DNA of 64,000 bases from a virus, in IMG/VR virus record IMGVR_UViG_3300046747_000566, positions 1-64,000 of that record; one strand, 5' to 3'. How positions within the stretch are numbered: position 1 is the first letter of the stretch; every line of letters begins with the position of its first letter. The translations under genes were made by a program, and so were the position numbers. Shown piece after piece: positions 1,890 to 61,996 of the stretch. The notes under the pieces are model-generated. The model did no database searches. It was not told the DNA's origin and saw only the letters and a program-made list of their open reading frames with translations.

Positions 1890-2114
1890 CTATTCTCCTA
1901 AGTGTGGATGCGGGAAAGACGATATCGGGACCCAGCCTCGTGTGGAGGTATTGCTACACAATCCACAAAAGTACTCGTTGTCTTTTCCGTGTACTAATTC
2001 CTCTTCTTCTGCCGCTTGGTTAACGTTCTGTAGCGCTTCTTCAAGCGTGTTGCCGCTTGCAGTAAGTGCAATATCTTCTTCTTTGACTCTGAAGAAATCA
2101 GTTAGCCAGTTCAT
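1890..2114 (-). CDS. hypothetical early protein
   Basis: ORF track. 2-nt gap to the neighbouring gene. Confidence 0.4.
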   Translation of the reverse strand: MNWLTDFFRVKEEDIALTASGNTLEEALQNVNQAAEEEELVHGKDNEYFCGLCSNTSTRGWVPISSFPHPHLGE

Positions 2115-2172
2115 GCTTTAACTCCTCTAATGAATGTGGGGATAGGCTCCCCACGGGCCACTAGCAAGCGCG

Positions 2173-2373
2173 CTACTTGGACTGTTCAGGGTAGTATCCG
2201 TATTTAGCCGCAAACTCTTGTATTTTACTGTCCCTCAATTGTCTAAATTCGTGTGCTTGTTCGTACTTCTCCATTTCAGCAGATATTCTGAATACATTGT
2301 CTGCACTATGAATGTCGAATAGATCGCTATCCTCTTCCATCTGTTGAGGAGTACGTTCTAAAGAAAATCTCAT
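2173..2373 (-). CDS. hypothetical early protein
   Basis: ORF track. Confidence 0.35.
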   Translation of the reverse strand: MRFSLERTPQQMEEDSDLFDIHSADNVFRISAEMEKYEQAHEFRQLRDSKIQEFAAKYGYYPEQSK

Positions 2374-2437
2374 GTTATTGGTCCTTTCGTGTGTAAAGTG
2401 GGCATCCCCTTTGATGCCCGACCCGCTAGCAAACGCG

Positions 2438-2671
2438 CTAATTATTTAAACTTTTTTGACGAATAAGTTCGTCAACATCACGTTTTGCGTCTTTCTCAGC
2501 AAGTTGTCTCACGATGGACCGAATATTCATCATTGAGACATCACCAGACTGCTGAGCAATCTTGATAGCCTCGTTCACGCGAACGCGTGCTTCTTCTTTA
2601 GAAGGTCTTCCAATGGGCATAAGTTTAACCTTTCTTTCTGCTCTACTGAGCAATTTGTCGAATGAAAACAT
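2438..2671 (-). CDS. hypothetical early protein
   Basis: ORF track. Confidence 0.35.
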   Translation of the reverse strand: MFSFDKLLSRAERKVKLMPIGRPSKEEARVRVNEAIKIAQQSGDVSMMNIRSIVRQLAEKDAKRDVDELIRQKSLNN

Positions 2672-2724
2672 TTCACTCGTTCCAGGCCGCTACAAGCTGC
2701 AACGACCTGAGCCGATGAAACGCG

Positions 2725-2940
2725 CTATTTCAGTAATTGTATGTCTTTGGCGGATACACCGCATCTCGTACATATTCCGGTAACAGCGTCCTCTGGAGTC
2801 TCACCACACTCACTGTACATCTTTCCCATGTTCCTCTTTCCAATACCTCTGAAGCTCCATGTCTTCCATGATGATGGAATCTCTGCATCATAAGCTTTGT
2901 TTGGCTGGAGGCATGATCTCGACTCGAATAGATTTAGCAT
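2725..2940 (-). CDS. hypothetical early protein
   Basis: ORF track. Overlaps the upstream gene by 7 nt. Confidence 0.35.
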   Translation of the reverse strand: MLNLFESRSCLQPNKAYDAEIPSSWKTWSFRGIGKRNMGKMYSECGETPEDAVTGICTRCGVSAKDIQLLK

Positions 2941-3164
2941 CTCTCACCAAGCCTTTTGAGTCTTTTTACTAGGAGATTCTTCTTTTCTTGCTTTTTATGA
3001 TACTCACACATTCCGTGTGATTTACCTTCGCCTTGGTGCTTTTCGAGCTGACCTTGCTCCTCTAGGCACCATGCGCAAGGCCTTACTGCTGTTTCTGACG
3101 ACATCTTTTGTCTTTCCGCCGAGTGTGCTATAATGAGCACAGTTTTAGCCCCGACTTCTTTCAA
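2934..3164 (-). CDS. hypothetical Cys/His-rich small protein
   Basis: ORF track. Contains CAWC ... HGMCEYH. Confidence 0.35.
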   Translation of the reverse strand: MKEVGAKTVLIIAHSAERQKMSSETAVRPCAWCLEEQGQLEKHQGEGKSHGMCEYHKKQEKKNLLVKRLKRLGERC

Positions 3165-3225
3165 ACCTGCGAGCTGCGACGACCAAATCTTCAGCTCGCA
3201 GGTGCCACAACTACTTCAAATTGCT

Positions 3226-3474
3226 TCAATTCGAGAATAATTCCCGTGAGTATGTGCCATCGACATGTGCTGCAAGGATTCCCGTGTCGACGAGCTCGTT
3301 TAAGTCGGCCAGCAAATCGCTCTTGCGCTCGTAGTAACTGCATACGTATATGCCGTCGAGCGACACAGACTCGTTATTCTCTTGCAGCATGTTCATGACA
3401 CGCATGATCTCGTTTTGGCTTCTGTGCATGTTATTTGCCTTTCTTATACAGCCTGAAATCGCGGTTTGCGACAT
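3226..3474 (-). CDS. hypothetical early protein
   Basis: ORF track. Confidence 0.35.
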   Translation of the reverse strand: MSQTAISGCIRKANNMHRSQNEIMRVMNMLQENNESVSLDGIYVCSYYERKSDLLADLNELVDTGILAAHVDGTYSRELFSN

Positions 3475-3750
3475 CGACTGACCTAAGATAACTCATCAAA
3501 CGCGCTACATTCCTAAATACGATGAAACGTTTATTGCTGGTATAGATCAGCTTATACATACAATGTGCCTTTCTGCTACATCCTGCTACTTTTGCAGGAT
3601 AATGAGCAATGCAGGACTCGGACCCGTTGCACGCCTTGTTATCGCCTTGTCTTCTCTGGCTTTCCGTACGTTTGCTGAGAGGTGGCATGCCTCCGAAGAA
3701 GCTTCTCGGAGATCCCTCCGATGGCCCTGCCCGAGCCAGATTAGTGTGAA

Positions 3751-3996
3751 CTATGCCACCTGGCCTGCGATGTACCGACTGATGTCATCATCTTGCGGTA
3801 CATCCTCTTCTATCCACTTCTCACCGTCGTATCTCACCAGGACATTGCCGCCTTTCAGACGGACTGTTCTTCCTGTATCGACGATCGCGTCATTCAGCCA
3901 TATTGACACTTTTACAACATCACCGTTGTTCAGATGAACATCTTGGCGTTTCGTGAATGTGCCGTATTTATTGATACGGCTGATCTCCACGCTCAT
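3751..3996 (-). CDS. hypothetical early protein
   Basis: ORF track. Confidence 0.35.
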   Translation of the reverse strand: MSVEISRINKYGTFTKRQDVHLNNGDVVKVSIWLNDAIVDTGRTVRLKGGNVLVRYDGEKWIEEDVPQDDDISRYIAGQVA

Positions 3997-4048
3997 TGCT
4001 TTCTCCTCGTTTCACTGGGAAGCATCAGCGACACTTCCCGCCTTACCA

Positions 4049-4897
4049 CTAGCGCATTAACTGAAAACCTTGATTCGTCGTTAAAGCTGCATTCATCATG
4101 GAATGCTCAACACGCTTGCGGCCCTTGATCTCATTGATCTCAGCTCTTAGCAGAGCCTTTGCAGTGTTTTTGACTTGACGACCTGGCGCGTACCAACCAG
4201 CCGCCGCAAGCTCTGCCTGGTGATCAATGGGTTCACCGCTTGGTGGCATGACCCAATCACAAATGTCGCTGTCCCACACTTTGCCATCGGGTTGTGGCTC
4301 ACAAACTTTGTTGCTATCGCTCCATTTGTAGCAGCATCTGTTAGGACACCAGTAGTATTTCCTTGGCTCGGCAACCACCTCAGCAGGCTTCGCTATTGCA
4401 GCAAGCCTCTCGCGGACTCCTTGCGACATTTGATACTGCTGGATGGCCACCGGAGCGCTCTCGACAACCTCCTGAGCAGACGTCTCAATGACAGGCTCTT
4501 CGTTCTCGAGATGCCGCAGAACAGCCTCCCTGTGTACGCAGGTTTCGCTGTTTCCGCAAGAGCAGAGCCACTTGCCGTCTTGTAACCATACCTGCTGTGA
4601 ATGGTCACAAATGTACCATCGTCCTGCTTCAACTTCACAGGTGATCTCTGATGCTTTGTGTGCAAATGCTGCATTTGCCATGGCAATGTGTTTACATGGT
4701 TTTTTCGAGTAACATTGACACCTTATGGCTGTCATTGCCTCATCCATGTCCACGCGGTAGATCAGGCCTTCAATGCGCTCGCTGGCGACTTCGCAGTACA
4801 GGCCTCTGTCGTCGGTCGATAAGACCAAATGTTCCATTATGTACCGTGCATACCAATCAATTTTCTTGGTTGCTTTCTTAGTAATCTGTGCTATCAT
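4049..4897 (-). CDS. SWIM zinc-finger protein
   Basis: Two CxC...CxH signatures: CQCYSKKPCKH and CSCGNSETCVH. Confidence 0.55.
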   Translation of the reverse strand: MIAQITKKATKKIDWYARYIMEHLVLSTDDRGLYCEVASERIEGLIYRVDMDEAMTAIRCQCYSKKPCKHIAMANAAFAHKASEITCEVEAGRWYICDHSQQVWLQDGKWLCSCGNSETCVHREAVLRHLENEEPVIETSAQEVVESAPVAIQQYQMSQGVRERLAAIAKPAEVVAEPRKYYWCPNRCCYKWSDSNKVCEPQPDGKVWDSDICDWVMPPSGEPIDHQAELAAAGWYAPGRQVKNTAKALLRAEINEIKGRKRVEHSMMNAALTTNQGFQLMR

Positions 4898-6481: not shown

Positions 6482-7114
6482 ATGGAAGAAAGAGATTATG
6501 ACAAAAGCAAAGTCACTAACAAATTTGCCGTGGGTGAACAAATTGAATGGGTGAAAGGAGTAACCGAATCAAACCCAGGATCAGACAATAGCGAGATGGT
6601 CGTTATTTTTCAGACGGGTATCATTAAGGAAATTTACAAGTGGGTGGTAGTTCTAGAGATTGATGGAGAGGAAAAAGTATTAAAGAAAGTATATCTTGAA
6701 AATAGCGCTGATGACCCCGCCCTAGCAGAAGCAATTGTAGCAAGCCTTGAATGGAATTATCTCCATGGGAGACCAAGTAAAACCGAATTGCCTCCCAATA
6801 AGCCACGCAAAAGTGGACCTCCCCACGATATCTATAGGCTAAGAGACCCACGTGATAAGGCCATTTTCTACATTGGCATATCCAAGAATTCCCAGAGACG
6901 GTACAAACAACATTTGGCATGTGTTGGTCTCAATTTCAAGCTGAATATCCGCATACAAGAGATACTCCAGTGTGGTCTCATCCCAGAAATGGAGATTATA
7001 GAGCAGGACGTAGATGGAACTGAGAGAGCAAAAGAGCGTGAAAGGTTCTGGATTAGACATCATCAAAGCCTAGGGGATGTATTGACCAATATAGCCGATT
7101 GCTTCCCTCATTAG
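6482..7114 (+). CDS. GIY-YIG nuclease domain protein
   Basis: C-terminal IYRLRDPRDKAIFYIGISKNSQRRYKQH ... ERERFWIRHH ... LTN. Confidence 0.65.
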   Translation: MEERDYDKSKVTNKFAVGEQIEWVKGVTESNPGSDNSEMVVIFQTGIIKEIYKWVVVLEIDGEEKVLKKVYLENSADDPALAEAIVASLEWNYLHGRPSKTELPPNKPRKSGPPHDIYRLRDPRDKAIFYIGISKNSQRRYKQHLACVGLNFKLNIRIQEILQCGLIPEMEIIEQDVDGTERAKERERFWIRHHQSLGDVLTNIADCFPH

Positions 7115-7128: not shown

Positions 7129-8337
7129 ATGGATGACAAGACAACTGGAGCACCTACCAAGAAGGAAAAGCCCGTATTTCCAGGATTTAATACCTCTTTT
7201 AAAGGGTTCTCTCAGATGCCTAATGAATGGCTGGATGAGATCATTTCACAAATAGACAATATAGCAGAACTTAAGGTTGTCCTCTATATATATCGTCATA
7301 CTTGGGGATTTCAAGAGAAGAAAATCAACCCCGATGACCCTGCCAAGCATGATGAAATTAAGCATATTACTACGGACGAATTTATGCATGGAAGGAAGAA
7401 AGCAGATGGGTCCCGCATGGACAGAGGAACAGGTCTCAGCAATCGAAGCGTGATAGATGGGCTCCGAAACGCTGCCAAGCACGGCTACATCTCAGAGGAG
7501 ATTAACGACACAGATAAGGGTAGAGTGGCTAAGTCTTATGCTCTTAATCTTCTGAAATCTACTGAAAATAGCTGTGAAGAAAGTTCACAGGGTGATGTGA
7601 AGAATCTTCATAGGGGTATGAAGACAACTCATAGCAATTGTGAGGAGACTTCACACCGATCAGAGAAAAGAACTCGAGCAGGACACTTTGAGAAAAATAC
7701 TAAAGAAAGAAAGAATGACGCGTCTGAGCAAAGCACCAACATCACGACCATCGAAGGTTCTTTCTCTCATCCATCCTCCTCTTTGTCTTCTTCTCTTTCT
7801 GGAGAGGGAACGAAAACCGAACTCTCACCAGAGGTAAAGCATACGTATGATCTTATCTGCCAAGAGATGTATCCTAATTGCTATCCAAATCTCACCACAA
7901 AGGCCATAGAGCACTTTACCAAGTTGGCTAAGGACATCAAGACGGTAGAGGATATCAAGAGCCTTGTGGCCTATTGTAGGCAAGAACAGCCTATACTCAA
8001 CACATCAAAGATCCACCCAGGGAACTTGGTACGTTGGCTAGATGGCTGGTTGTTACAAACACAGACTCCAGTAACCGAGTCGTTGCCTGAGCTGCCTGGT
8101 GATCCAGCGGTCACTGACGAGGAACTAGCAGAGGATGTATGGGGTTTTGTTCGAGCATATCGGGGTGAAGAGCGCTTTGAAGAATGTCTAAACCGCGTAA
8201 AGGCCATGAAGAGAGAAGGAGAGTTGAGCAACTATAAAATGTGCGATAAGATGGCAGATGCTTGCAGGAGAGCACCATCTAGTAGATATGAAATTGATGA
8301 ATTTTTTGAGCAGCTACGACAAAATTTGTACTGGTAG
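7129..8337 (+). CDS. replication initiator/replisome-organizer-like protein
   Basis: N-terminal FSQMPNEWLDEIISQIDNIAELKVVLYIYRHTWGFQEK resembles the phage replication-protein wHTH. Central low-complexity linker. Confidence 0.4.
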   Translation: MDDKTTGAPTKKEKPVFPGFNTSFKGFSQMPNEWLDEIISQIDNIAELKVVLYIYRHTWGFQEKKINPDDPAKHDEIKHITTDEFMHGRKKADGSRMDRGTGLSNRSVIDGLRNAAKHGYISEEINDTDKGRVAKSYALNLLKSTENSCEESSQGDVKNLHRGMKTTHSNCEETSHRSEKRTRAGHFEKNTKERKNDASEQSTNITTIEGSFSHPSSSLSSSLSGEGTKTELSPEVKHTYDLICQEMYPNCYPNLTTKAIEHFTKLAKDIKTVEDIKSLVAYCRQEQPILNTSKIHPGNLVRWLDGWLLQTQTPVTESLPELPGDPAVTDEELAEDVWGFVRAYRGEERFEECLNRVKAMKREGELSNYKMCDKMADACRRAPSSRYEIDEFFEQLRQNLYW

Positions 8338-9379: not shown

Positions 9380-10225
9380 ATGAACAGTCTATACCTTTTT
9401 CCCCCAGATGACAATACCCCAATGAAAACCTGTAAAGGTATTTGTGGGCGTACTCTTCCTGCAACTCCTGAGTATTTTTACAAGCACCCACAATGTAAAG
9501 ACGGATTAATGGGAAAATGCAAGAAATGTCGTGATATCCCAAACGTGGTTCCAGTTGCTCCAGATGGGCATAAAATATGTAAAGGCCCGTGTGGGCGTAC
9601 ACTGCCTGCCACTCTCGAATTTTGGTATCACAAAGATAGAGGCAAATATGGCCTGAATTCACACTGCAAGGAATGTATAGCGGAAGAATGGAAGTGGAGT
9701 GATCGGCATCCTGACACAAAGAAACGCATGATAGCGAAGCAAAAAGAATATCAAGCACGCCCTGAAGCAAGAAACAAAAAACGTGCCCATGATAAGTTGT
9801 ATCACGCACGGCCTGAAATAAAAAAGCATAAACAAGAATATTCTAAAGAGTATCGATCTCTTCCAGAGACAAAAGAGCACGGAAAAGAGTACCGGAGACG
9901 TCCTGAGATAAAAGAGTATAATAGAATACAGCGACACAAACGGCGTGCCCTTCAAGGATCTATCGGAGGGACTCACACGCCTGAGCAGATACAGGACCAG
10001 TTAAAAAGACAGAAGCATAAGTGTTATTATTGCCGCAAGAGATTTGAAAAGAAAGATAGCAGGTACATTTATCACATTGAGCACACTTTCCCCCTTTCTC
10101 GTGTTGCAGGTACCGACATTCCCGCCAATAGCATGGGCTACTTGGTGCTAGCATGTCCTTCATGTAACAGCAGCAAAGGCAACAAGTTCCCCTGGGAATG
10201 GCCTGAAGGTGGTAGATTGTGCTGA
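9380..10225 (+). CDS. HNH endonuclease with N-terminal CxxC...CxxC modules
   Basis: Modules CKGICGRTLPATPEYF...CKKC and CKGPCGRTLPATLEFW...CKEC. HNH core YHIEHTFPLS...LACPSCNSSKGNK. Confidence 0.8.
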   Translation: MNSLYLFPPDDNTPMKTCKGICGRTLPATPEYFYKHPQCKDGLMGKCKKCRDIPNVVPVAPDGHKICKGPCGRTLPATLEFWYHKDRGKYGLNSHCKECIAEEWKWSDRHPDTKKRMIAKQKEYQARPEARNKKRAHDKLYHARPEIKKHKQEYSKEYRSLPETKEHGKEYRRRPEIKEYNRIQRHKRRALQGSIGGTHTPEQIQDQLKRQKHKCYYCRKRFEKKDSRYIYHIEHTFPLSRVAGTDIPANSMGYLVLACPSCNSSKGNKFPWEWPEGGRLC

Positions 10226-11683: not shown

Positions 11684-12226
11684 TTATTCCTCTGATTTTC
11701 TCTCTCCGCTAAATTCGAACGTCTTTAGCGCGTCTGGTAGAAAGGTATCCAGCACCTCCCGAATGAGCCTAGAAGCTGATAGTTTCGTCCCAGTGGCTTG
11801 CTCATAGAGGTCGCAAAGCTGCTGAATGTCGTCTTTCTGATCACTATAGATCTCAAAACTATACCGCTCCGTAGCACGCTTATCAACTTCTAAAATAGCC
11901 TGCACATCCTTACTGCTAAACACCTTTGGTTTCCTCCTAGAAGTCGAACGGTTTGGGCGCTCGACTTTGTTGCTTGATTTGGTAGATCGCTTTTCCTTTT
12001 CGGTAGATTTACTCGGCTCGTCCGATGCTTGTACCGAACTACTTTCTATGGCGGCGGTAGCACTCGGCTCTTCTTCTCTCTTTTTATCATCGGGTTTATC
12101 AGCCTCTTCTACCGATGAAGATAAAGCTTCGGATGCCTCCTTCAGAATATCGATCGATTGTATCCCTTTGCGTAGCTCAGTAGGGGACTTTTTGCCGAGC
12201 AGATCCTTCAAATCTTTTTTAGCCAT
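11684..12226 (-). CDS. ParB-like partition adaptor (by position; acidic N-region, structured C-domain)
   Basis: Its start overlaps the parA stop. No family motif recognised. Confidence 0.35.
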   Translation of the reverse strand: MAKKDLKDLLGKKSPTELRKGIQSIDILKEASEALSSSVEEADKPDDKKREEEPSATAAIESSSVQASDEPSKSTEKEKRSTKSSNKVERPNRSTSRRKPKVFSSKDVQAILEVDKRATERYSFEIYSDQKDDIQQLCDLYEQATGTKLSASRLIREVLDTFLPDALKTFEFSGERKSEE

Positions 12227-12986
12227 GATCGCTCTCCAGTCTGTCTATGATGATATCGACCAGCCCCATGTACTCCTTTGCGCCCGCGTGATTTGGAGCG
12301 GAAATAACGAGCGGTTTTCCCTCCAATGTGCTATTCACAAACTGGACAGAAAGTCTAATTTCAACAGGTAAAACAAGGCCTGGATAATCCTCTTTTGTCT
12401 TGTCCAGAACGCCGCGTGCAATCGTTGTACCCTGTACCATACACGGCACAATTCCGAGCACTGACAGGCCTGGGTTAAGCCCGTTTTTGACCTTTGAAAT
12501 ATCATCCATAATTCTGGCCACACCTTCCATTGCGAGGTAGTGTGCCTGTAATGGAATAACTACATAGTCAGAGGCTACCAGAGCGCTAAGAGAGAGGTAT
12601 CCGTGCCCTGGCTGGGTATCTATCACGATATAATCATTGTCCGTTTTAAGGTCCTCTACAATCGGTTTTAGCTGACCTATAGATCGGGCAGTCATACCAG
12701 CCGCCACTTGCTCGAGTTCCTGCGATGCTGGGATGACAGATAGTCCGTACTCAGTCTGCTGAACAACGTCCTGCGTCGAAAGTGAGACATTGGTAAAGAG
12801 ATCGGCTATTGAGTATTTCAAATCGAACGGATTGATGCCCAAGCACATACTCCCGTTCGCTTGGTCGTCCAGATCTACAAATGCAGTTTTCTTCCCGCGT
12901 AGTTGCAGGCCAGCCGCTATGTTTGTGGAAGTGGTTGTTTTGCCGCTCCCACCTTTGCGCAGAGCAACACAAATCGTTTTTGCCAT
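12219..12986 (-). CDS. parA: ParA/Soj-type partition ATPase (small, type Ib-like)
   Basis: Deviant Walker A in MAKTICVALRKGGSGKTTTS; later IVIDTQPG. GGAGG RBS before this ATG (the ORF-track start 13028 is probably too long). Confidence 0.85.
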   Translation of the reverse strand: MAKTICVALRKGGSGKTTTSTNIAAGLQLRGKKTAFVDLDDQANGSMCLGINPFDLKYSIADLFTNVSLSTQDVVQQTEYGLSVIPASQELEQVAAGMTARSIGQLKPIVEDLKTDNDYIVIDTQPGHGYLSLSALVASDYVVIPLQAHYLAMEGVARIMDDISKVKNGLNPGLSVLGIVPCMVQGTTIARGVLDKTKEDYPGLVLPVEIRLSVQFVNSTLEGKPLVISAPNHAGAKEYMGLVDIIIDRLESDHG

Positions 12987-13054
12987 TCGGAATGGTCCTC
13001 CTGAAAATAGAATGATCCAGTATAGCATTACTTCCGAACGGGAAAAACGAACGC

Positions 13055-19515: not shown

Positions 19516-20340
19516 GTGACTTCCGTTATGTCTAACAGTATACCAGAAAAAGCCTCTCAGTATACCTTTAATTTTGACGCGCTCATCAGTACGCAACACA
19601 TTGAAGATGCGGTTCATAACAATCCTCCTTTTGAGAGACAGTGTTCCCAATGTCTCAAAACAAAGCCTCTTTCCGAATTTGAAGCACGCAAAAACAGTAA
19701 AAATAAACGATGTAAAGTCTGTATCAATAAATACGGCTATCAGGCGAATCTTCAAAAACAATGTGACACGTGCCTTGAGGTGAAATCGCCCTCTGAATTT
19801 GGAGCAAATTCGAAGTACGGGAGAAACCAATCCTGTAAAGTTTGTGTCAAGAAAGCTAAATATCACAAGGCGGTTGCAGAGCCAGGGCAGACCAAACAGT
19901 GCACTGGCTGTCTTGAAACAAAACCTATCACCTCTTTTTCCCCTGCTGCATCTGGTCGCTATGGTGTCAGGGGTGCTTGTAAGGTGTGTTGTACTGCCTA
20001 CCAAAAAGAACGGTACAGAACAGGCCCAAAAACCCCGAAAAAGCGCAATCCAAATTCCGGAAGAATTCACAAACTCAGAACGGAGTTTGGTATGACCCTT
20101 GCTGATTATGAGAAAATGTTTATTCAGCAGAAAGGAGTTTGTGCCATTTGTGGCAATCCTGAAAAATCGAGGAATCCCAAAACAGGAAAGATCAAGAATT
20201 TGAGCGTAGACCATTGTCACACCACAGGTACGATACGAGGACTCCTTTGTCTCAATTGCAATCATATGCTTGGCAGTGGTCAAGACACCCCTGATCTTCT
20301 GAGGAAAGGCGCGGATTACCTCGAAAAGTACAGCAAGTAG
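19516..20340 (+). CDS. endonuclease VII-type HNH nuclease with three CxxC...CxxC modules (start GTG 19516 or ATG 19528)
   Basis: Modules CSQCLKTKPLSEF..CKVC, CDTCLEVKSPSEF..CKVC and CTGCLETKPITSF..CKVC. Core SVDHCHTTGTIRGLLCLNCNHMLG. Confidence 0.8.
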   Translation: MTSVMSNSIPEKASQYTFNFDALISTQHIEDAVHNNPPFERQCSQCLKTKPLSEFEARKNSKNKRCKVCINKYGYQANLQKQCDTCLEVKSPSEFGANSKYGRNQSCKVCVKKAKYHKAVAEPGQTKQCTGCLETKPITSFSPAASGRYGVRGACKVCCTAYQKERYRTGPKTPKKRNPNSGRIHKLRTEFGMTLADYEKMFIQQKGVCAICGNPEKSRNPKTGKIKNLSVDHCHTTGTIRGLLCLNCNHMLGSGQDTPDLLRKGADYLEKYSK

Positions 20341-53338: not shown

Positions 53339-53959
53339 CTATTTTTCCTCATCCTTCTGAGGTAGATAAACTGCTATACCGCTTGTTTCAATAGGTCCGC
53401 CATCCTTGCCAGTAAGTTCAGACTTCGTTAATTTAACCCTTTCGCCTTTTTCAGCAGCTATACTAGCAAGATATTTGTCTATTGTTCCATATAATCCATC
53501 ATTAAACTTTGTTTCTTTTGCACCCACTAGATACATGTTACTTATGTTTTCTGCCTCTTCTACTAGTTGCTCAGTCAATTTATTTAATACCTGTATACGA
53601 CTATGCTTTAGCGCATATCTAGACTTTAGTATCTCTTCTTCTTCTAACGCTATAAGCCTATCTCGTTCTTTTCTTTGCTCTTCATCCCAAGCCTTTGCTC
53701 TTTCATTCCACTCCCATTGCTTAGCTGTGTCGTACCAATTTTTACTTATTTTAGTCCTTGTTTTTCCTTGTTTTTCCTTGTTTTCTGCTTCAAAGACAGC
53801 ATTAACGGAACGCCTCCATCCCATAAGGCGGAATCGGTTAAATCTGGAAAACCACTTTGCTGATTCTCCTTCCTTTCGATCCCATGGTTTACGTTCCTCA
53901 TTCACTGACTTATCCTGTAAACAAACAAAAAGGGCGTTGCTCTCGATTAGGAGAAACAA
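53339..53959 (-). CDS. terS: terminase small subunit-like protein (true start probably downstream of 53959)
   Basis: WFSRFNRFRLMGWRRSVNAV ... WYDTAKQWEWNERAKAWDEE. Abuts terL. Confidence 0.45.
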   Translation of the reverse strand: MFLLIESNALFVCLQDKSVNEERKPWDRKEGESAKWFSRFNRFRLMGWRRSVNAVFEAENKEKQGKTRTKISKNWYDTAKQWEWNERAKAWDEEQRKERDRLIALEEEEILKSRYALKHSRIQVLNKLTEQLVEEAENISNMYLVGAKETKFNDGLYGTIDKYLASIAAEKGERVKLTKSELTGKDGGPIETSGIAVYLPQKDEEK

Positions 53960-54204: not shown

Positions 54205-54461
54205 AACGATATCACCTAAATTTAGCTCTATTATAACTATACGTTATTGTGCAAGGTCTGTCAAGGCATTTGCGCTATCTGAGGAATCTGGTTGGAGCGA
54301 GAGATGGAACCGTTTACTCGCTCCGATCAGGAAAGATATCCTTTGGGGTTGTCGTCTGTCTTTGTCTGATAAAACAAGAGTAGCGCAGTTGCTACTCAAC
54401 ACGATGATAGCATGTCAGTATGAATTTGTAAAGCAATTGGGATATATTGCCGTGATGAACA

Positions 54462-54557
54462 TCACGGACAATCCCTGCTCTCCATCCATATCGCTAATCC
54501 GCACCCGATGAGCAGAAAGCCTGCTGCAAAGATTGCTAACCCGAATATTGCGTCCAT
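54462..54557 (-). CDS. possible 31-aa hydrophobic peptide
   Basis: My translation gives MDAIFGLAIFAAGFLLIGCGLAIWMESRDCP, preceded by AGGAAAG. Below the ORF-track cutoff. Confidence 0.2.
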   Translation of the reverse strand: MDAIFGLAIFAAGFLLIGCGLAIWMESRDCP

Positions 54558-54577
54558 TCAATCTTTCCTAAATTATT

Positions 54578-54741
54578 GGAGAGGTCAGGATTTGCACCTA
54601 ACATGACCAGAAACGTCATTTGCCGTGTCACGCCGTCCTACGTGTTTCAGAGCTAGCATCTTACTTTACGTAGTCGTGGATTCGAACCACAAAGCTGGTC
54701 TAAGCTGGCGATCTTAGCGTCTACCTATTGCGCCACTCTCC
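54578..54741 (-). tRNA. composite tRNA-like element, not a canonical cloverleaf
   Basis: 5' GGAGAG pairs with 3' CTCTCC 150 nt away. Leu-like D-arm GCGCAATAGGTAGACGC. Two T-arm-like hairpins: GTGG-TTCGAAT-CCAC and TTAGG-TGCAAAT-CCTGA. Confidence 0.35.
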
Positions 54742-54831
54742 AGAGTGTATGCCATCCATTCCTGCTAAAGAGGCCAGATGCAAAGTCTCCATTTGCGTCC
54801 AGCCCTCGCAGTTCGTAAGGAGATAGATGAG

Positions 54832-54840
54832 ATTATACCA
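54832..54840 (-). promoter_or_regulatory. possible extended -10 promoter (TGgTATAAT) upstream of the tRNA-like element
   Basis: Minus strand reads CATGGTATAAT. There is no good -35. Confidence 0.25.
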
Positions 54841-55154
54841 TGGTTGGCAACACAATCATAGCAATATCGCATTGTGCGGCAAATTTGAGAGGTTACTGCG
54901 TGCTAGGTACTTTGTATTGTCTGATGTGGGCAAGGCCATCTAGTGGTCATATGGTGAGGATGAGTTTGTAACGAAAAACCTCTCTACTGCTGTGACTTGA
55001 AGCACTTGGCTTCAAGATGTTGTCCGAGAGAGGCTTTGTTGGCTGTTGTGGTGGCAGCCGCACCGAATATCTTTTAACGCTGTGATATGTTAGCGGCTCT
55101 AACGAGCATCCTCATCTTAGCAGGGCTGTCAACTGTCCGATTTTTGCGGACGGC

Positions 55155-55382
55155 TCAATTTTCAGGGAAGCCCCCTTTCATAACTCTAGCTCTTTTTACC
55201 TTCTTCAGAGCTTCATTTAGAATTTTAGTATCCTCTAGTGTTTCGCACTCGAAGCCAATCAGTGAATAGCCGCGCGGCATGCCAATGTCTTCATCGAGAC
55301 CTGTAAATTCGACTTTCTCGCGCTCGTCTACCATAAAGTAGAGGCATTTGTTTTCATCGGCAACATGTGAGTTTTGGTCCAT
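55155..55382 (-). CDS. hypothetical small acidic protein
   Basis: ORF track. GGAAAGGA RBS. Confidence 0.4.
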   Translation of the reverse strand: MDQNSHVADENKCLYFMVDEREKVEFTGLDEDIGMPRGYSLIGFECETLEDTKILNEALKKVKRARVMKGGFPEN

Positions 55383-55395: not shown

Positions 55396-55945
55396 CTATG
55401 CTGATTGCTTCATAGCAACACTGGCAAGATACTCACGAATACGCGCTAGGTTGTCGGAAGGGAAGATTTTACCCAAATCGTTTGGATGTATACTGCCTTT
55501 CTTGCTATTGCAACTAGCGCAAGCTGGTATGCAATTGTCGGCAGTAGTGCCACCTAACCTAGAAAGCGGCAAATAGTGTTCGAGTACTTGATATGGCTTT
55601 TTATTGCAATATCCACACTTATTATTAAAGTAGCTAATAGCTTCAGCCCATTCTCGAACTGTGAGAGTAGCTGGCGTGCCTGCTTTTATCGCTCTCTTTC
55701 TATGAGATGACACGGTTGACCAATCTGGATACCGCACATAGCACTTATCGCATATGGAGTGGTAGGTATAGTCAAGAGTCCTTTCGCCGCAACATTCACA
55801 TGTTGTCTTTGCTTTCTCCAGCTTGACGGCAAAACAATCTGGGCAATGTCCAAGCCATCTGCTTTCCACTTTAGGATGGTGCAGGCACTGCTTGTCAGAG
55901 AACATCGTATAGCATTCCTCGCACATTCGTGACCAATCATCAAAT
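55396..55945 (-). pseudogene. 3' fragment of the transposon-split, terminase-proximal HNH endonuclease gene
   Basis: HNH core LEHYLPLSRLGGTTADNCIPACASCNSKKGS. Joins in frame to 60629..60983 once the element is removed. Confidence 0.8.
55941..55945. repeat. target-site duplication CAAAT (left)
   Basis: Same pentamer at 60629..60633, directly abutting the inverted termini. Confidence 0.75.
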
Positions 55946-55949
55946 TGAC

Positions 55950-56045
55950 GTTTCTCATATAAAATTTCCCCTTTCTCAAGAATAATTTCCCATCACAAAT
56001 AGAGAGAACGAGCAAAACAGGCTCATTTTCTCGCATACCTTTTCC
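55950..56045 (+). repeat. left-end transposase-binding-site-like repeats L1-L3
   Basis: GTTTCTCATATAAAATTTCC, CCTTTCTCAAGAATAATTTCC and CATTTTCTCGCATACCTTTTCC. Confidence 0.65.
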
Positions 56046-56107
56046 TCCTGCCCTTCCTCTCACGAGACGTTAGCTTTTGAGGCTGTTTTCGCTCCGTTTT
56101 CGCTCCA

Positions 56108-56150
56108 GAAAAAAAGTTATCTGAGAAAAACGAAAAGTTATGCGAGAAAT
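56108..56150 (+). repeat. two further repeat copies in the opposite orientation, abutting the tnsAB start
   Basis: GAAAAAAAGTTATCTGAGAAAAA and CGAAAAGTTATGCGAGAAAT. Confidence 0.6.
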
Positions 56151-56159
56151 GCTTGCTAT

Positions 56160-58859
56160 GTGCGAGGCAAACGGATATACTCAATGGGAAGAGAGCATGA
56201 ACGCGAGCGGAGGCCGCGAGGAGGAAAGGAACACACCGTGTTGACTGACGATAGTTTTCACGCCTGGTGCTTGCAGAACAAGATTCCTGCGGAGACTGAA
56301 GCCTACATTGAGCGTATTCGTTCGTCGCAGCCTGTGCGAAAGGTGCGCAGCCGCGCTTCTAACGTCAGTGGGCGGTATCCTTCTGTCAAAATGGGCCGCT
56401 CCATCCAATTTGAAAGCCGCCACGTTGAGTTGTGGGGAATCTACGAGATGGAGCGAGATGACGATGTGCTGGAATACTACGATCAACCCACCCGTATCCA
56501 GCTTCAGTATCGCGCCCGCTCTGGTCGCAAGACGACCCAATGGCATACTCCAGATTTCTTCGTCATTCGGCAACACTCCGCTGGCTTTGAAGAGTGGAAG
56601 CCCGTTACTGCCCTGGATACGCTTACGGTGACGATGCCGGAGCGGTACCAAAGCGAAACATCAGGCGGCTGGCGCTGTCCCCCTGGAGAAAGCGCAGCAC
56701 AGGTGCATGGCTTGTTCTATCGGGTACGGACCAATGCAGAGGTCCATCCGCTCGTGATCCAAAATCTCAAGTTTCTCCAAGATTTCTGGATTCACCCATA
56801 CGAAGTTCCACCTGAGCAAGAAGCTCAAGTACTGACACTGGTCAGCACCGCTCCAGGGATCACGGTCCGTCAACTCCAGGAAGCCTGCCCTGATCCGCCT
56901 GTCGATGTGCTTTGGGCACTGCTGACCGATCAGCGTCTCTTTACCGATTTGTCTGCTTCCTCGCTCATGCAATGGGACCAAATACGTCTCTTCCGCTCCC
57001 AGGCTGAAGCAGAGGAGGCTCGTTCTCGTGCAGTGAGGTTTTCGCAGCCGATTCCGTTGTTTACTCGACTGAGCTTCGACGGGCGACTGTGGGAAGCAGA
57101 AAAACAGGGAGATCAGGTTGTCTTGCGCCCAGAAGTTGGCGTCGCTGTCACCTTGCCGACAACCCAAGTGCAACACCTTCTCGCCACGGGTGCTGCCACG
57201 CTCGTCGGGGAGGCTACCCCATCCAAACTTTCCGAGGAGGCCAGAACTTTGCTGCTTGGCGCTGGCCCGACTGCTTTAGCTGCTGCCAATCAACGCCTCA
57301 GCACCATCCTGGCATATATGAGCGGCGAAACGGTGACGGTCACGAAACGCTCCGTGCAAAACTGGCTGCGCAACTACCATGAAGCCGAGCGGACATATGG
57401 ATGTGGGTATCTCGGGTTACTGGACAAATCAGCGCGTCGTGGCAACCGAGCACCTCGCGTAGACGCGGCATCAAAACAGCTTCTGGAAACCGTTCTTCGT
57501 ACCCATTACGCGGTACCTCAAGCGAAACGTCGCCCTGCCGTCTATGCCCTCTACCGTGAGGAATGCGTCAAACAGCATGTTTCCCCTGTCAGTCAAGCCA
57601 CTTTTTATCGGGAATGTGCCCTCTTTACGACACCCGAAGTCACGACAGCCCGGAGGGGCAAGCGTGCTGCTTACGCTGATCAACCCCGCTTTTTCTACCT
57701 GGATCAGACCACTGCGCGTCATGGCGAACGGCCATTTGCTCTCGCACATCTTGATCATACGGAACTCGATATTCTGCTCGTCTCCTCCATCACCGGCAAA
57801 CCGCTGGCAAGGCCTTACGCAACGTTTCTGATTGACGCCTACAGCCGCCGCCTGCTGGCTGTCCATGTCAGTTATGAACCTCCCAGTTATCGGTCAGTGA
57901 TGATGGCCTTTCGACTCTGTGTCCAGCGCTACGGTCGTCTTCCCCAGGAAATCGTGGTCGATCATGGCCCAGAGTTTGGCAGCGTCTATTTTGAAGCATT
58001 ACTCTCCCAGTGCTTTGTGACGAAAATCAACCGACCACCTCAGCAGCCGCATTTTGGGTCCGTGATTGAGCGAATTTTCGGAACCACCACCAGCGAATTC
58101 CTCAATCAGCTCCGAGGCAACACACAAGCCAGTAAAGTGCCTCGCCTCCTTACACGAGAAGTGGACCCCAAACGGCTAGCTGTCTGGACACTGGAACGCT
58201 TTGCAGCACGGCTCACCGAATATGTCTACGAGGTCTATGATGTGATGGAGCATCCCGCATTATTCATGAGTCCACGCGAGGCCTACGCGCAAGGGATGGA
58301 GTTGGCAGGAGCGCGGAGTCATCGGGTTATTGCCTACTCTGAAGCGTTCCTGATGCAGACGCGGCCCACCACTCGAACTGGCAAGGCGAAAATCTACCGG
58401 GGACGCGGTATCACCGTTAACGGGTTGCAATACTGGCATGAGCGGATGATGGCCTCGGACATTGCTGGTCAAACTGTGCCAGTGCGTTTTGAACCCTACG
58501 ATATGGGAGTGGTCTATGCCTACATTGATGGCCAATGGCTTGGATGCATTGCCGATGCCTATGCGCAGGTGCATGGGCGCTCCGAAAAGGAGTGGAACCT
58601 GATCCTGGACGAGTGGCGTGAGCACCAGCGCCAACATGCGCAGAAGCGCGTAACACTCAATGGTCCGTTGCTCGCCCAATTTTTGCAACAGGTAGAACAG
58701 GAAGAAACATTCTCACTTCAGCACGAGCGCGAGTACGAAGAGCAGGCCCTGCGTTCGGCCAGCCTCGGATCGCACTCTCGGCTTCCTCGTTCGGATGAGA
58801 TCCCTCCAGAAATTACCATTGATTTGACCAAACTTCGTCACCTTGAGGAGTATCGCTGA
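56160..58859 (+). CDS. tnsAB: TnsA-TnsB fusion transposase (likely start GTG 56238 after GGAGGAAAGG)
   Basis: TnsA-like FESRHVELWGIYEMERDDDVLEYYDQP...WHTPDFFV...FEEWKP. DDE core HLDHTELD ... VVDHGPEF ... GSVIERIFG. Confidence 0.8.
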   Translation: MRGKRIYSMGREHERERRPRGGKEHTVLTDDSFHAWCLQNKIPAETEAYIERIRSSQPVRKVRSRASNVSGRYPSVKMGRSIQFESRHVELWGIYEMERDDDVLEYYDQPTRIQLQYRARSGRKTTQWHTPDFFVIRQHSAGFEEWKPVTALDTLTVTMPERYQSETSGGWRCPPGESAAQVHGLFYRVRTNAEVHPLVIQNLKFLQDFWIHPYEVPPEQEAQVLTLVSTAPGITVRQLQEACPDPPVDVLWALLTDQRLFTDLSASSLMQWDQIRLFRSQAEAEEARSRAVRFSQPIPLFTRLSFDGRLWEAEKQGDQVVLRPEVGVAVTLPTTQVQHLLATGAATLVGEATPSKLSEEARTLLLGAGPTALAAANQRLSTILAYMSGETVTVTKRSVQNWLRNYHEAERTYGCGYLGLLDKSARRGNRAPRVDAASKQLLETVLRTHYAVPQAKRRPAVYALYREECVKQHVSPVSQATFYRECALFTTPEVTTARRGKRAAYADQPRFFYLDQTTARHGERPFALAHLDHTELDILLVSSITGKPLARPYATFLIDAYSRRLLAVHVSYEPPSYRSVMMAFRLCVQRYGRLPQEIVVDHGPEFGSVYFEALLSQCFVTKINRPPQQPHFGSVIERIFGTTTSEFLNQLRGNTQASKVPRLLTREVDPKRLAVWTLERFAARLTEYVYEVYDVMEHPALFMSPREAYAQGMELAGARSHRVIAYSEAFLMQTRPTTRTGKAKIYRGRGITVNGLQYWHERMMASDIAGQTVPVRFEPYDMGVVYAYIDGQWLGCIADAYAQVHGRSEKEWNLILDEWREHQRQHAQKRVTLNGPLLAQFLQQVEQEETFSLQHEREYEEQALRSASLGSHSRLPRSDEIPPEITIDLTKLRHLEEYR

Positions 58860-60226
58860 TGCGTTCACTTCACCCGGCTCTCCAGGCTCGCTTAGCGGCA
58901 TTACAGCAGTACAAGATCAAACACGCTTCTTTGGAAAAAATGGATGATCTGCTGATGAATGCCATTGATGAGCACACCAGCTACAGCATCTTGGCCCTGT
59001 ACGGTCCTAGCGGGGTCGGAAAATCCACCGTCATGAAGCGGATTGCAGAACGGCGTCGGGAGGAGGAGTCTGATCCTTCCGTGGTACCTATCGTAGTCGT
59101 CCAGGCATCGCCGGAAGATGTCGGATCAGCAGCCCGTCTGGATTTTTACCGCCAGACGCTTCACCAACTCCGTGGGCATGTTGCGGTACGGGATCGTATC
59201 TTGAATCTCCCTCTGGCTCGCGAGCGAGGGAAAAAGAGTACTGACCCGGCAGAATGGCTCGAAATGCGTGATGCAGTGTCATATGCGCTCGATCTCCTCA
59301 AAGTTTCGGCTGTCTGCGTTGACGAAGCGCAACATCTGCTACAAGCAGATGCGGCACAAAAGCCTTCCATCCAACTGGACTGGCTCAAATCGCTCACCAA
59401 CCGGAGTAATCTGCTCTATATCCTCCTGGGAAACTTCTCCCTGTACGATTTCTGCCACCTGAACGGACAAGTAGCTCGGCGTGTGCACGAAGAACAATTT
59501 GCTCGATACCACCTGGACCAGCAAGCAGATGCAGTAGAATTTACCAGCGCATTGAAAGTGCTCTTAGAGCAGGTCCCACTCCAGGTTGATATCCCAGAGA
59601 TGCTCACCCATTGGAAATGGTTCGGCGAATGGAGCATCGGCTGTATTGGTATTCTCAGCGATTGGATCGTGGAAACGGCTGCGACGCTCTGCCGTACCGG
59701 AGAGACCGTATTCACCCTTGAGGCGCTGGCAAAGCATGCCCTAAAACCAGCACAGCGCCTCAAATTGGAAACGGAAGCACGCACCGGAGAATTCAAGATT
59801 GAAGAGGCTCGACGCGAAAGCGAACGAGAGCTTCAACGTCTATTGGGCAGACCCTCGACACAACCTCGTAGTTCACCACAACATCCTCCATTGTCCAACG
59901 GTGCCACGACGAGTCCGAGGCCCTCGAAGTCTCACACATCCCCCCATATTGAACGGGCAGCTCACCGCGATCCAGTGGGTGAGCAGGTCTTCACCGGAGC
60001 GAGCACCAAATGCTCCTATCTGGGTATGATTGAAGTGACACGCAACCAATTTCAAGAAACTGGTACTACCTGTGTCGAATGTCCGACCTGCAGCGCTCGC
60101 CGGACCCTCAAATCTCCCAAAGATTGGCCTCATTTTCCATCACACCAGCTGCGCAAAAGCCCGCCGCCAAAAGGAGAACGACGTTGGATATTACAGGAGC
60201 AGATCTGGAAACTGGGCGAAGACTGA
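58859..60226 (+). CDS. tnsC: TniB/TnsC-like AAA+ ATPase with about 165-aa C-terminal extension ending in a Cys cluster
   Basis: LYGPSGVGKST (Walker A), VCVDEAQHL (Walker B). C-terminus KCS...TCVECPTCS. TGATG overlap with tnsAB. Confidence 0.75.
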   Translation: MRSLHPALQARLAALQQYKIKHASLEKMDDLLMNAIDEHTSYSILALYGPSGVGKSTVMKRIAERRREEESDPSVVPIVVVQASPEDVGSAARLDFYRQTLHQLRGHVAVRDRILNLPLARERGKKSTDPAEWLEMRDAVSYALDLLKVSAVCVDEAQHLLQADAAQKPSIQLDWLKSLTNRSNLLYILLGNFSLYDFCHLNGQVARRVHEEQFARYHLDQQADAVEFTSALKVLLEQVPLQVDIPEMLTHWKWFGEWSIGCIGILSDWIVETAATLCRTGETVFTLEALAKHALKPAQRLKLETEARTGEFKIEEARRESERELQRLLGRPSTQPRSSPQHPPLSNGATTSPRPSKSHTSPHIERAAHRDPVGEQVFTGASTKCSYLGMIEVTRNQFQETGTTCVECPTCSARRTLKSPKDWPHFPSHQLRKSPPPKGERRWILQEQIWKLGED

Positions 60227-60245
60227 CGGACCAGTGGGCATACTT

Positions 60246-60401
60246 GATCAAGACAGAGGGGCTCTCTCACTTTGTGTGATTCTGAGACGAGAAAGCAGAT
60301 GGGAAAAAGGAGAGACATGCTAAGAAGCCAGATCATCTCTCCAGACTCTTCAGGTCTGTTCGAGCTTTCACACAAAGTGAGAGAGCCCCTCTGTCTTGAT
60401 C
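60246..60401. repeat. 34-bp perfect inverted repeat separated by 88 bp
   Basis: GATCAAGACAGAGGGGCTCTCTCACTTTGTGTGA at 60246..60279, with its exact reverse complement at 60368..60401. Confidence 0.9.
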
Positions 60402-60435
60402 GAGTAGACCAGCGGGTTTCTTCGCGAGCCTGAAA

Positions 60436-60628
60436 CGAAAAGTTATGTGAGAAAAAACAGTCATACAGCGTCGTTTGCCGAAAACAAAGTGACAAACACG
60501 GCATGGAAAAGTTATGTGAGAAAAAGCAACAGCAACGTTCGTCGATGATGTCCCTTTCCAGGCGGCTTGAGGAAATTCCCTAGAAAAGTTATCTGAGAGA
60601 AAAACGAAAAATATTCTGAGAAACATCA
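60436..60628 (-). repeat. right-end transposase-binding-site-like repeats R4-R1
   Basis: CGAAAAGTTATGTGAGAAAAAA, GGAAAAGTTATGTGAGAAAAAG, AGAAAAGTTATCTGAGAGAAAAA and CGAAAAATATTCTGAGAAACATCA. Confidence 0.7.
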
Positions 60629-60633
60629 CAAAT
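60629..60633. repeat. target-site duplication CAAAT (right)
   Basis: See 55941..55945. Confidence 0.75.
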
Positions 60634-60983
60634 GGTATTCTATATCGGCTTTCATTTTTCCTAATACAGCTTATGCAATACTTGCCATTCATTGGCGTGT
60701 ATTTTGATGTAATTCTGTATTCCTCGCTAGCCGATGAATCATGAGGGAAATTGAACAGTTTTACCACTAAATCATCACACTCATCACAGTACCCGCCCCC
60801 ATTATCTTTTATCCCCTGTACCTTTATCTGCTCTGCAATCTCAAACTGTTTAGCTCGTTCCTCCTGCTGGTTGAATATTTGTTGCCAGTCCAAAGATGAA
60901 AGGTACTCTACCATTTCCTGTGCCTCTTCTGGTGTTTTTACAATATTGAGTATTGCATATCTTGCTGAGTGCTCATTAATCAT
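60629..60983 (-). pseudogene. 5' fragment of the split HNH endonuclease gene
   Basis: Contains YCDECDD...YCISCIRK modules. As found, the ORF reads through into the transposon end as far as 60333. Confidence 0.8.
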
Positions 60984-61996
60984 CCTAGTTTTACCTCCTC
61001 GTTTGCTATTTCGGCATCACCTGCATACCGCAATGGCATAGCGGGACTCGACCAGCCACCGGCCTGTTGCAAGCTCTTGATATCAGTTCCCCCGCGTATA
61101 GCAGACTCTACCCATGCATGCCTACAATCATGAGCTGAGAGCCCTTCAATACCAAGAACACGTTGTCCTAAAACTTTCACGCGCTTGGTTATTGCCCTTC
61201 TACTCATCACTCCCTCTAGCTGACCCCCTTTTCTGCTACCAGCCAGTAACCTCTGTGTTGGCTGGTAGACTTCTAGATATCCAATGAGGGCTACAAGAGT
61301 ATCAGCAGACAACTTATGCCTTTGTGTTTTCTTGACCTTTTCTCTCCTGAAAACCATCAGACCTTCAGAGAGACGAATATCATCAGGTGCTAAATCAGCA
61401 ACTTCCCCACAGCGCAGACCATGGTCTAGAAGCAGGCACATCAACAGCGTATCGCGTCGCCCCTGTGGTGTCCCCATAGGTTTCTTGAGCAAGGCAACCT
61501 GCTCACGTGCAAGGGCAACTGGCTGGGACTTCTTTACCCCTTTGTTTGTATTGTTCCGTTGCTCATTGACATTCTCACCTTGAGCATAGCTATACCCCTT
61601 CACAAGCTGAAGCGCAACAAGCTCACTATAGGGAATAGATCCAGCTTTGGCAGCAAGCCTAAGATACGTTTTCACCGTAGAAAGTCGAATATTGATAGTT
61701 CCAATGGCAAACCCATCTTCTAGCATCCATTGCACAAAGTCAGACACTATTCCATGCGTTATGTCAGACCATGCCTCCGGTTTATGCAAAAGGTCCTCTG
61801 GGCTAATAATGATGTTGTGTCCTGCTATATACAAGCAGAAGAGAGACAAATCATACTTTTGCCTTGCGAGGGTATTAGGATCTATTCTCTTTTGATAGTC
61901 CTCAAAAGACCGCTCTGAAACCAAATCATTCTTTTCTTGTCCAAGCTGAGCAAGAGGAGACTTTCCTTCAGAGAATGGAATAAGGTCATATTCCAC
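60980..61996 (-). CDS. int: tyrosine recombinase / phage integrase
   Basis: GLRCGEV ... HDCRHAW ... GGWSSPAMPLRY. Confidence 0.8.
   Translation of the reverse strand: MEYDLIPFSEGKSPLAQLGQEKNDLVSERSFEDYQKRIDPNTLARQKYDLSLFCLYIAGHNIIISPEDLLHKPEAWSDITHGIVSDFVQWMLEDGFAIGTINIRLSTVKTYLRLAAKAGSIPYSELVALQLVKGYSYAQGENVNEQRNNTNKGVKKSQPVALAREQVALLKKPMGTPQGRRDTLLMCLLLDHGLRCGEVADLAPDDIRLSEGLMVFRREKVKKTQRHKLSADTLVALIGYLEVYQPTQRLLAGSRKGGQLEGVMSRRAITKRVKVLGQRVLGIEGLSAHDCRHAWVESAIRGGTDIKSLQQAGGWSSPAMPLRYAGDAEIANEEVKLG

Follow-up and report, generated by a model that had tools for sequence, protein, structure and literature searches.

The DNA analysed here, called the window throughout, comprises 64,000 nucleotides (positions 1 to 64,000 of the IMG/VR virus record IMGVR_UViG_3300046747_000566). 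At 55946-60628 it contains a segment of 4,683 bp which bears the features of a Tn7-like transposon and which splits a phage gene coding for an HNH protein. The segment opens with the terminus TGACGTTTCTCA (55946, plus strand), and its other inverted terminus is TGATGTTTCTCA, the reverse complement of 60617-60628. It is flanked by a perfect 5-bp target-site duplication, CAAAT, one copy of which occupies 55941-55945 and the other 60629-60633. Termini and duplication had been proposed in an initial annotation of this DNA, and the coordinates and sequences given there proved exact. Base 55946 is also the precise position at which homology to related elements stops. The termini are of the form TGA...TCA, in which the 3' CA is retained, whereas the TGT/ACA of Tn7-like ends is not. 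The G+C content is 53.4% in the interior of the element versus 46.3% in the rest of the window, a difference previously estimated by eye.

Each end carries four predicted TnsB-type repeats of 18 bp. When the whole 64-kb window was searched for GAAAAGTTATNTGAGAAA with no more than three mismatches, eight occurrences were found, every one of them inside the two ends, while 0.23 would be expected by chance; thus, the repeats cannot be regarded as accidental. In the tnsAB-proximal end (55946-56149, plus strand) an inward-facing pair (55951-55968 and 56027-56044, minus strand) is followed by two oppositely oriented copies just upstream of tnsAB (56111-56128 and 56132-56149, plus strand), and this spacing (+6, +82, +166, +187), the oppositely oriented pair included, is kept in 12 relatives. 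A weak promoter-like site (56153-56181) occurs at the latter pair. The tnsAB-distal end (60429-60628, plus strand), which finishes with ...TGAGAAACATCA, contains four direct repeats (60437-60454, 60506-60523, 60583-60600 and 60606-60623, plus strand) at 174, 105, 28 and 5 nt from the tip, and these distances are likewise preserved in relatives.

The two parts of the interrupted gene lie on the minus strand, the N-terminal fragment at 60629-60983 and the C-terminal one, with its Cys modules and HNH core, at 55396-55940. Removal of the element and one CAAAT in silico joined them into a single open reading frame (ORF) of 299 amino acids (aa), reading ...RYRIPF|DDWSRMCEE... across the junction, whose C-terminal half matches the Pfam HNH family PF01844. 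Six uninterrupted homologues (P0241, P0242, P0244, P0245, P0247 and P0248; 288-347 aa, 34-48% identity, 92-100% coverage) align across the junction, with Cys pairs conserved on both sides of it. The integrase gene (60980-61996) overlaps the HNH gene by 4 bp, and the gene for the closest homologue directly follows an integrase gene too, the overlap again being 4 bp. Because of this shared arrangement and the uninterrupted homologues, we regard the restored ORF as a real gene, in agreement with the earlier claim that the element had split it. An assembly artefact at the junctions is excluded, since a single gene supplies both flanks and the duplication is present on either side.

tnsAB, tnsC and the cargo slot

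Only two genes were found between the ends. The first, tnsAB (56160-58859, plus strand), is an ORF of 899 aa; judging by the start of its homologues, near residue 27 (GTG at 56238), the protein would have about 873 aa. The TnsA-DDE fusion recognized in the initial annotation is borne out by matches to the Pfam families Tn7_TnsA-like_N (PF08722, residues 100-154), rve (PF00665, residues 533-620) and Mu-transpos_C (PF09299, residues 740-793). The best match among solved structures is an 898-aa TnsAB fusion transposase (PDB 9bw1_M, E = 6.6e-193), and the 9bw1 entry additionally holds TnsC of the CRISPR-associated transposon (CAST) PmcCAST. In an alignment of 21 homologues, with identity down to 41%, the PD-(D/E)xK residues E60, D107, E120 and K122 and the DDE triad D507, D576 and E612 are all invariant. 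The product of tnsAB is thus predicted to be a fused TnsA-TnsB with both active sites conserved. Its C-terminus, ...LEEYR, resembles the short aromatic hook by which PmcTnsAB binds TnsC, and this feature of PmcCAST appears to be retained in the window protein.

The second gene, tnsC (58859-60226, plus strand), whose start overlaps the tnsAB stop (58859), codes for a TniB-type AAA+ ATPase of 455 aa. Its matches to PF05621 and AAA_22 agree with its earlier description as a TniB/TnsC-like protein. Residues 6-341 align with the AAA+ core of PmcCAST TnsC (PDB 8fcu, E = 3e-40), and the Walker A (GPSGVGKS) and Walker B (DEAQH) motifs are invariant in the TnsC alignment. Beyond the core there is a variable Ser/Pro-rich linker, then an RDPVG motif (residues 370-374; 59966-59980, plus strand), and finally a domain of about 70 aa (60005-60223, plus strand). 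The C-terminal extension of the ATPase, previously put at about 165 aa, should therefore be revised: about 115 aa lie past the region aligned to PmcCAST, and the conserved domain takes up only the last 70 or so. The RDPVG motif was found in the alignments to be common to the C-terminal ends of cyanobacterial TnsC, and ...KRD(T/D)VG... ends both the TnsC proteins of Tn5541-like elements and one TniQ-associated TnsC. Since it also ends the TnsC proteins of cyanobacterial two-gene elements and of one TniQ-associated element, RD.VG seems to be a general feature of the TnsAB-fusion group. In Tn7, the C-terminus of TnsC binds TnsA; by analogy, the RD.VG motif could be the TnsC contact for the TnsA domain.

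The last domain of TnsC has four invariant residues, C385, C408, C411 and H429 (C-x22-CxxC-x17-H), and two invariant Trp; a further cysteine, C405, is not conserved. We refer to it as the CCCH domain. It is conserved in every member of the clade, at 53-100% identity, while the linker preceding it is variable. It is basic (median isoelectric point 9.5), and AlphaFold2, run on a 36-sequence alignment, folds it with a predicted local distance difference test score of about 80-88. A profile search of 1.84 billion representative proteins (E<=1e-3) returned 288 proteins with this domain; the best 150 of these are all colinear with TnsC or are C-terminal fragments of it, and this indicates that the domain is specific to the TnsC of this clade. 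The C-terminal 153 aa matched no Pfam family even at E<=1. In profile searches the domain had no significant match in Pfam or among PDB sequences, with only faint zinc-ribbon matches in Pfam, and a Foldseek comparison of its fold with PDB and BFVD gave nothing below E = 0.7. Kinship with the zinc fingers of TniQ was considered and found no support. We describe it as a putative zinc-finger-like domain which is previously undescribed and found only in this clade.

No TniQ, TnsD, TnsE, Cascade, CRISPR array or cargo gene was found between the ends. At E<=1, neither TniQ (PF06527) nor any other Pfam family was detected in the other four frames of the element, and a repeat search of the element revealed no CRISPR-like repeats; together with the result for the TnsC tail, this agrees with the absence of a selector and of a CRISPR module stated in the initial annotation. 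TniQ is also missing among the called neighbour genes of relatives. The large inverted repeat mentioned in the initial annotation is a hairpin of 188 bp (60230-60417) recovered by repeat search and folding, with 50-nt arms (60230-60279 and 60368-60417, 88% complementary), an 88-nt loop and a folding energy of -108 kcal/mol (z = -9). It fills the slot between tnsC and the distal end. Relatives share positions 1-4292 and 4484-4683 of the element. The stretch between these, immediately behind tnsC, is taken up in them by 1-4 kb of varied, unrelated cargo; examples of the encoded proteins are a methyltransferase, a ceramidase, a short-chain dehydrogenase, an FRG-domain protein and an MCRA-type hydratase that accompanies an alpha/beta hydrolase. 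The description of the element as cargo-less thus holds for the window copy, which has the hairpin only, and fails for the clade. No further copy of the hairpin was present in the window or in 70 related loci, no Rfam family matched it, and its arm had no match in IMG/VR viral contigs. It could be a miniature inverted-repeat transposable element, a deletion scar or a terminator. Directly past the tnsC stop of a cyanobacterial two-gene element on a Nostoc sp. MS1 plasmid (L003, 10798-10922) there is an inverted repeat with 28-nt arms. As its position is the same, a hairpin after tnsC may recur, for instance as a terminator.

Relatives, insertion sites and known systems

Searches returned 1,397 homologues of TnsAB (E<=1e-20) and 466 of TnsC (E<=1e-10), nearly all of them metagenomic, and the few with a named source come from Chloroflexi, Ktedonobacteraceae or Ktedonosporobacter. 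A copy in Ktedonobacter racemifer, with 87% aa identity, is rearranged. A scan of the genome collection gave two loci only, and no relatives were found in IMG/VR viral contigs by TnsAB protein or by alignment scan. Many homologues are located on contigs only about 4.6-6 kb long, which is what a multicopy repeat would be expected to give, and many of the short contigs are near-identical. Judged by these similarities, the window element is assigned to a large clade of Ktedonobacteria (Chloroflexota) with more than 1,000 homologues; we found no paper on Tn7-like elements of these bacteria. The flanks of the Ktedonobacteria copies contain 50-60% G+C, which matches the element (53%) and not the phage (46%), and this would fit a jump from a host of this kind into the phage.

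Insertion sites were compared in 59 metagenomic loci and several longer contigs. In these, homology to the window element opens exactly at the TGAC terminus, and the same termini bound relatives at about 25 distinct, unrelated insertion sites. A check of other copies had been proposed earlier; it revealed these common termini and, in four relatives, perfect 5-bp duplications, so that with the window copy (CAAAT) five independent insertions of this kind are known (GTTCC, AAAAT, AGCGC and ATGAG in the others). The ATGAG copy is chromosomal, in Ktedonosporobacter rubrisoli, and sits among ABC-transporter and metabolic genes. Genes interrupted by or adjacent to relatives include those for a UvrD-like protein, a beta-lactamase-like protein, an EamA transporter and a group II intron maturase. 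No target consensus emerged from 25-37 flanks, and a lean towards A+T close to the site (G+C of 0.44 versus 0.49 further off, p = 0.07) is weak and non-significant. Decayed copies occur as well, those at L004, L068 and L070 being examples, and around the copies at L069 and L072 there are integrase, ParA-like or HNH genes; the flanks of L069, L070 and L072 have no sequence in common with the window phage. At L030 (512-1171) the insertion of one relative adjoins a group II intron reverse transcriptase at its maturase/HNH part; that this is a second insertion at an HNH-bearing mobile gene is probably a coincidence.

Among described elements, the closest are those of the Tn5541 branch of cyanobacteria. 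According to Hsieh and Peters (2022, PMC9881144), this branch lacks both TniQ and cargo, combines a TnsAB fusion with a C-terminally extended TnsC, and has been reported from plasmids only. Tn5541 itself (Schaefer and Kahn 1998, cited through PMC9881144) was placed among Tn7-like elements by these authors. The initial annotation took a dedicated selector to be a requirement of known Tn7-like elements, which does not hold for this branch, and activation of TnsC without a selector was flagged as an open point for Tn5541 (PMC9881144). In the plasmid collection, we found the two-gene layout also on plasmids of Nostoc, Trichormus, Tolypothrix and Fremyella. The ends of these cyanobacterial elements could not be read from repeat searches alone, and were delimited by comparing three copies. 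The Fremyella/Tolypothrix element obtained in this way is 4,751 bp long, with TGTG...CACA termini, duplications CAGTC and GTGTT, and no cargo.

The likeness to the window element is considerable. Both have the TnsA-TnsB fusion, a TnsC longer than that of CAST relatives, no TniQ, a cargo-less copy of nearly the same length (4,751 versus 4,683 bp), 5-bp duplications and many insertion sites. The window TnsC is nearer to the Tn5541 type (33% identity, 205 bits) than to TniQ-associated TnsC (26%, 114 bits). On the other hand, the window TnsAB is only about 41% identical to the proteins of Nostoc, Trichormus and Tolypothrix, and this places it outside the TnsAB group, whose members are said to be more than 50% identical in their transposases (PMC9881144). 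The hosts are different as well, Chloroflexota in one case and cyanobacteria in the other, and so are the termini, TGAC...(G/A)TCA in the window clade and TGTG...CACA in the Tn5541 type. The TnsC extension of the latter is a long Lys/Thr/Pro-rich tail stopping at ...KRDTVGxE, while in the window clade a short linker with RDPVG is followed by the CCCH domain, which the cyanobacterial proteins lack. Finally, members of the window clade often carry cargo and reside on chromosomes and in a phage, whereas the Tn5541 branch is described as cargo-less and plasmid-borne. As Tn5541 shares this design and is almost equal in size, the selector-less architecture with a fused transposase is not new. What is new is the large Chloroflexota clade, its clade-specific TnsC domain, the defined cargo slot and the documented insertion into a phage genome.

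In a separate observation on Nostoc punctiforme pNPUN03 (L002, 164-10118), a Tn5541-like two-gene element was seen to start 447 bp from a TnsAB-TnsC-TniQ element and to be divergent to it, in a head-to-head arrangement which could be due to chance or to one element targeting the end of the other.

Other systems share parts of this design. The type I-B2 and I-D CASTs (PmcCAST and McCAST) and their tRNA-targeting relatives provide, in 9bw1, the fused TnsAB that is the best solved match; the window element differs from these CASTs in having no Cascade, CRISPR array, TniQ, TnsD or fixed attachment site, and in the length of TnsC (455 versus 383 aa in CAST). Cyanobacterial Tn5469 is likewise minimal and cargo-less, has a fused TnsAB and causes spontaneous insertion mutations at no fixed site, but it still encodes one TniQ, which the window element does not (PMC9881144). 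IS21, in which the AAA+ protein IstB delivers the DDE transposase IstA to loosely specified targets, is also a two-gene, cargo-less element; it has no TnsA domain, a transposase of a different clade, about half the size and another end structure. Tn5053/Tn402 (TniABQR) has TniQ and the TniR resolvase and no TnsA, whereas the window element has the TnsA domain and neither TniQ nor a resolvase. Tn7 with gain-of-function TnsC ('TnsABC*') transposes without TnsD and TnsE into many sites of low specificity, making 5-bp duplications. The analogy is a functional one: these mutants were made in the laboratory, in a five-gene element whose TnsA and TnsB are separate proteins, while the window clade is selector-free naturally and throughout, and has a domain added to TnsC.

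Proposed mechanism and alternative explanations

The window element has the hallmarks of Tn7-type integration, an intact operon with intact motifs and no selector gene, and its clade occupies many unrelated targets. The explanation that we consider very probable is that an intact, minimal Tn7-family transposon, probably autonomous and with TnsA and TnsB naturally fused, moved from a Ktedonobacteria-type host into the HNH gene carried by a temperate phage; among described elements, Tn5541 is its closest relative. By homology to PmcCAST, McCAST and Tn7, TnsAB would bind the end repeats and pair the ends, its DDE domain would cut the 3' ends and its TnsA domain the 5' ends. If TnsC behaves as its homologues do, ATP-bound rings of it would assemble on target DNA and recruit TnsAB through the C-terminal ...LEEYR hook, and joining staggered by 5 bp, again by homology, would follow. 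We propose that TnsC may load itself on DNA without TniQ and with little sequence preference, and that the basic CCCH domain may help in this self-loading; in Tn5541, the Lys-rich, disordered tail may play the same part. The oppositely oriented repeats at 56111-56149 may constitute an autoregulatory operator of tnsAB.

Several points weigh against this explanation. In Tn7, wild-type TnsABC shows no activity unless TnsD or TnsE is present. The window element could obtain a selector in trans, from elsewhere in the host genome, and the CCCH domain, for which no homologue of known function was detectable, may or may not have the role in TnsC loading assigned to it. The distal terminus of the window copy reads TGATG versus TGACG in many relatives; TGAT at this end is also found in several other copies. 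No phage with the exact empty site was found, the closest intact HNH homologue being only 47% identical. Lastly, both cut-and-paste and replicative movement have been reported for related TnsAB fusions (PMC9881144).

Another explanation would assign a larger part to the CCCH domain. It might replace TniQ as a built-in selector, nucleating TnsC upon recognition of a structure in, or a protein typical of, replicating mobile DNA such as a phage or plasmid, so that the insertion into the phage was targeted. We hold this to be possible, albeit only tentatively. The strong conservation of the domain next to a variable linker, its restriction to the TnsC of this clade, its basic character and its confident AlphaFold2 fold would all be in line with such a function, and so would the residence of the window copy in a phage, the integrase, ParA-like or HNH genes around L069 and L072, and the reported confinement of the Tn5541 branch to plasmids (PMC9881144). 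However, the K. rubrisoli copy is chromosomal, surrounded by ABC-transporter and metabolic genes, other targets are ordinary genes as well, and relatives were not found in IMG/VR viral contigs. Moreover, the domain resembles neither TniQ nor any DNA-binding fold, and the sites are too few for statistics.

It is unlikely, in our opinion, that the window copy is a defective or trans-dependent derivative which lost tniQ and cargo by a deletion, with the hairpin as the scar, and which is now immobile or needs TniQ from a related element. The hairpin does occupy precisely the cargo slot and is peculiar to the window copy, decayed copies do exist, and the Tn5541-like element of N. punctiforme adjoins one with TnsAB, TnsC and TniQ. 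Nevertheless, the two-gene layout without TniQ is clade-wide (53-100% protein identity) and is found in the cyanobacterial branch too, both ORFs of the window copy are full length with intact motifs, and the many near-identical short contigs point to multicopy spread. The perfect duplication and the absence of further lesions in the HNH halves argue for a recent, active insertion. Still much less probable, to the point of being negligible, is membership of another family with a DDE transposase and an AAA+ protein, such as IS21 (IstA/IstB), Tn552, Mu (A/B) or Tn5053/Tn402. The two-gene layout, the TG...CA-type ends with multiple repeats and the short duplication would be compatible with it. Against it stand the N-terminal TnsA endonuclease domain with its conserved catalytic residues, the 9bw1 TnsAB fusion and PmcCAST TnsC as by far the best solved relatives, the lack of TniQ and of a TniR resolvase, and, for IS21, the misfit of a 4.7-kb element with an 873-aa transposase. 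IS21, Mu, Tn552 and Tn5053 were therefore rejected on account of the TnsA domain and the CAST-level similarity.

Phage context and significance of the finding

The genes around the insertion indicate that the window represents a temperate phage or prophage. It has terS (53339-53959), a Terminase_6-type TerL and a portal fused to an SPP1-gp7/Mu-F-like head-morphogenesis domain, and it further encodes an integrase, an excisionase, an O-like replication initiator and a ParA-like partition protein. A nucleotide search of the phage database with the flanking 8 kb gave no match and no close reference phage, and a protein search of it with the restored HNH sequence gave partial matches only, at less than 60% identity. 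The integrase-HNH pair is kept at L065-L067, in distant relatives without terminase genes downstream, which suggests an integrase-HNH module; at L065, at least, the pair adjoins ordinary bacterial genes. The HNH gene is coupled to the integrase gene and not to the terminase genes. A Terminase_6 TerL together with a portal/SPP1-gp7 fusion is typical of headful packagers and not of HK97-like cos phages. Further free-standing nuclease genes are present in the window at 9380-10225, 19516-20340 and 6482-7114 (all plus strand); two of the further nucleases are HNH/endonuclease VII proteins with Cys-rich N-terminal repeats, according to PHROG matches, and one ORF has a GIY-YIG-like motif, recognized by eye only. 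As the phage carries these other genes, the interrupted one is one of several. The suggestion that the insertion cripples an HK97-like, HNH-dependent packaging is accordingly left without support by the type of TerL, by the coupling of the HNH gene to the integrase and by the presence of the other HNH/endonuclease VII genes.

Two other features of the window were observed. About 950 bp at 54205-55154, between a 75-aa ORF (55155-55382, minus strand) and a small ORF with terS upstream of the terminase, contain no ORF of at least 50 aa, and neither an Rfam match nor a notable repeat was found there; this region could hold a pac/cos site or an unannotated RNA. Genes for the ParA-like partition protein and the O-like replication initiator (12219-13028, minus strand, and 7129-8337, plus strand) occur alongside those for integrase and excisionase, and the phage may persist as a plasmid as well as integrate.

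In the textbook view of Tn7-family transposition, the transposase is kept off until TnsC is nucleated by a selector, which may be TnsD, TnsE, or TniQ acting with Cascade or Cas12k. The window leads to a second, much larger clade of selector-less elements, in soil Chloroflexota, and this clade lends itself to comparison through its precise ends, the five duplications, the dozens of insertion sites, the defined cargo slot and the discrete, conserved appendage of TnsC. If TnsAB and TnsC suffice, they would form a two-protein cut-and-paste system close to the I-B2/I-D CASTs, useful as a minimal chassis and for finding out what TniQ contributes. If, instead, the CCCH domain replaces TniQ, the Ktedonobacteria clade would be the simplest natural machine of the Tn7 type, consisting of two proteins with the selector inside the ATPase. 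In addition, entry of a host transposon into the genome of a temperate phage would provide a route for spreading the element between hosts.

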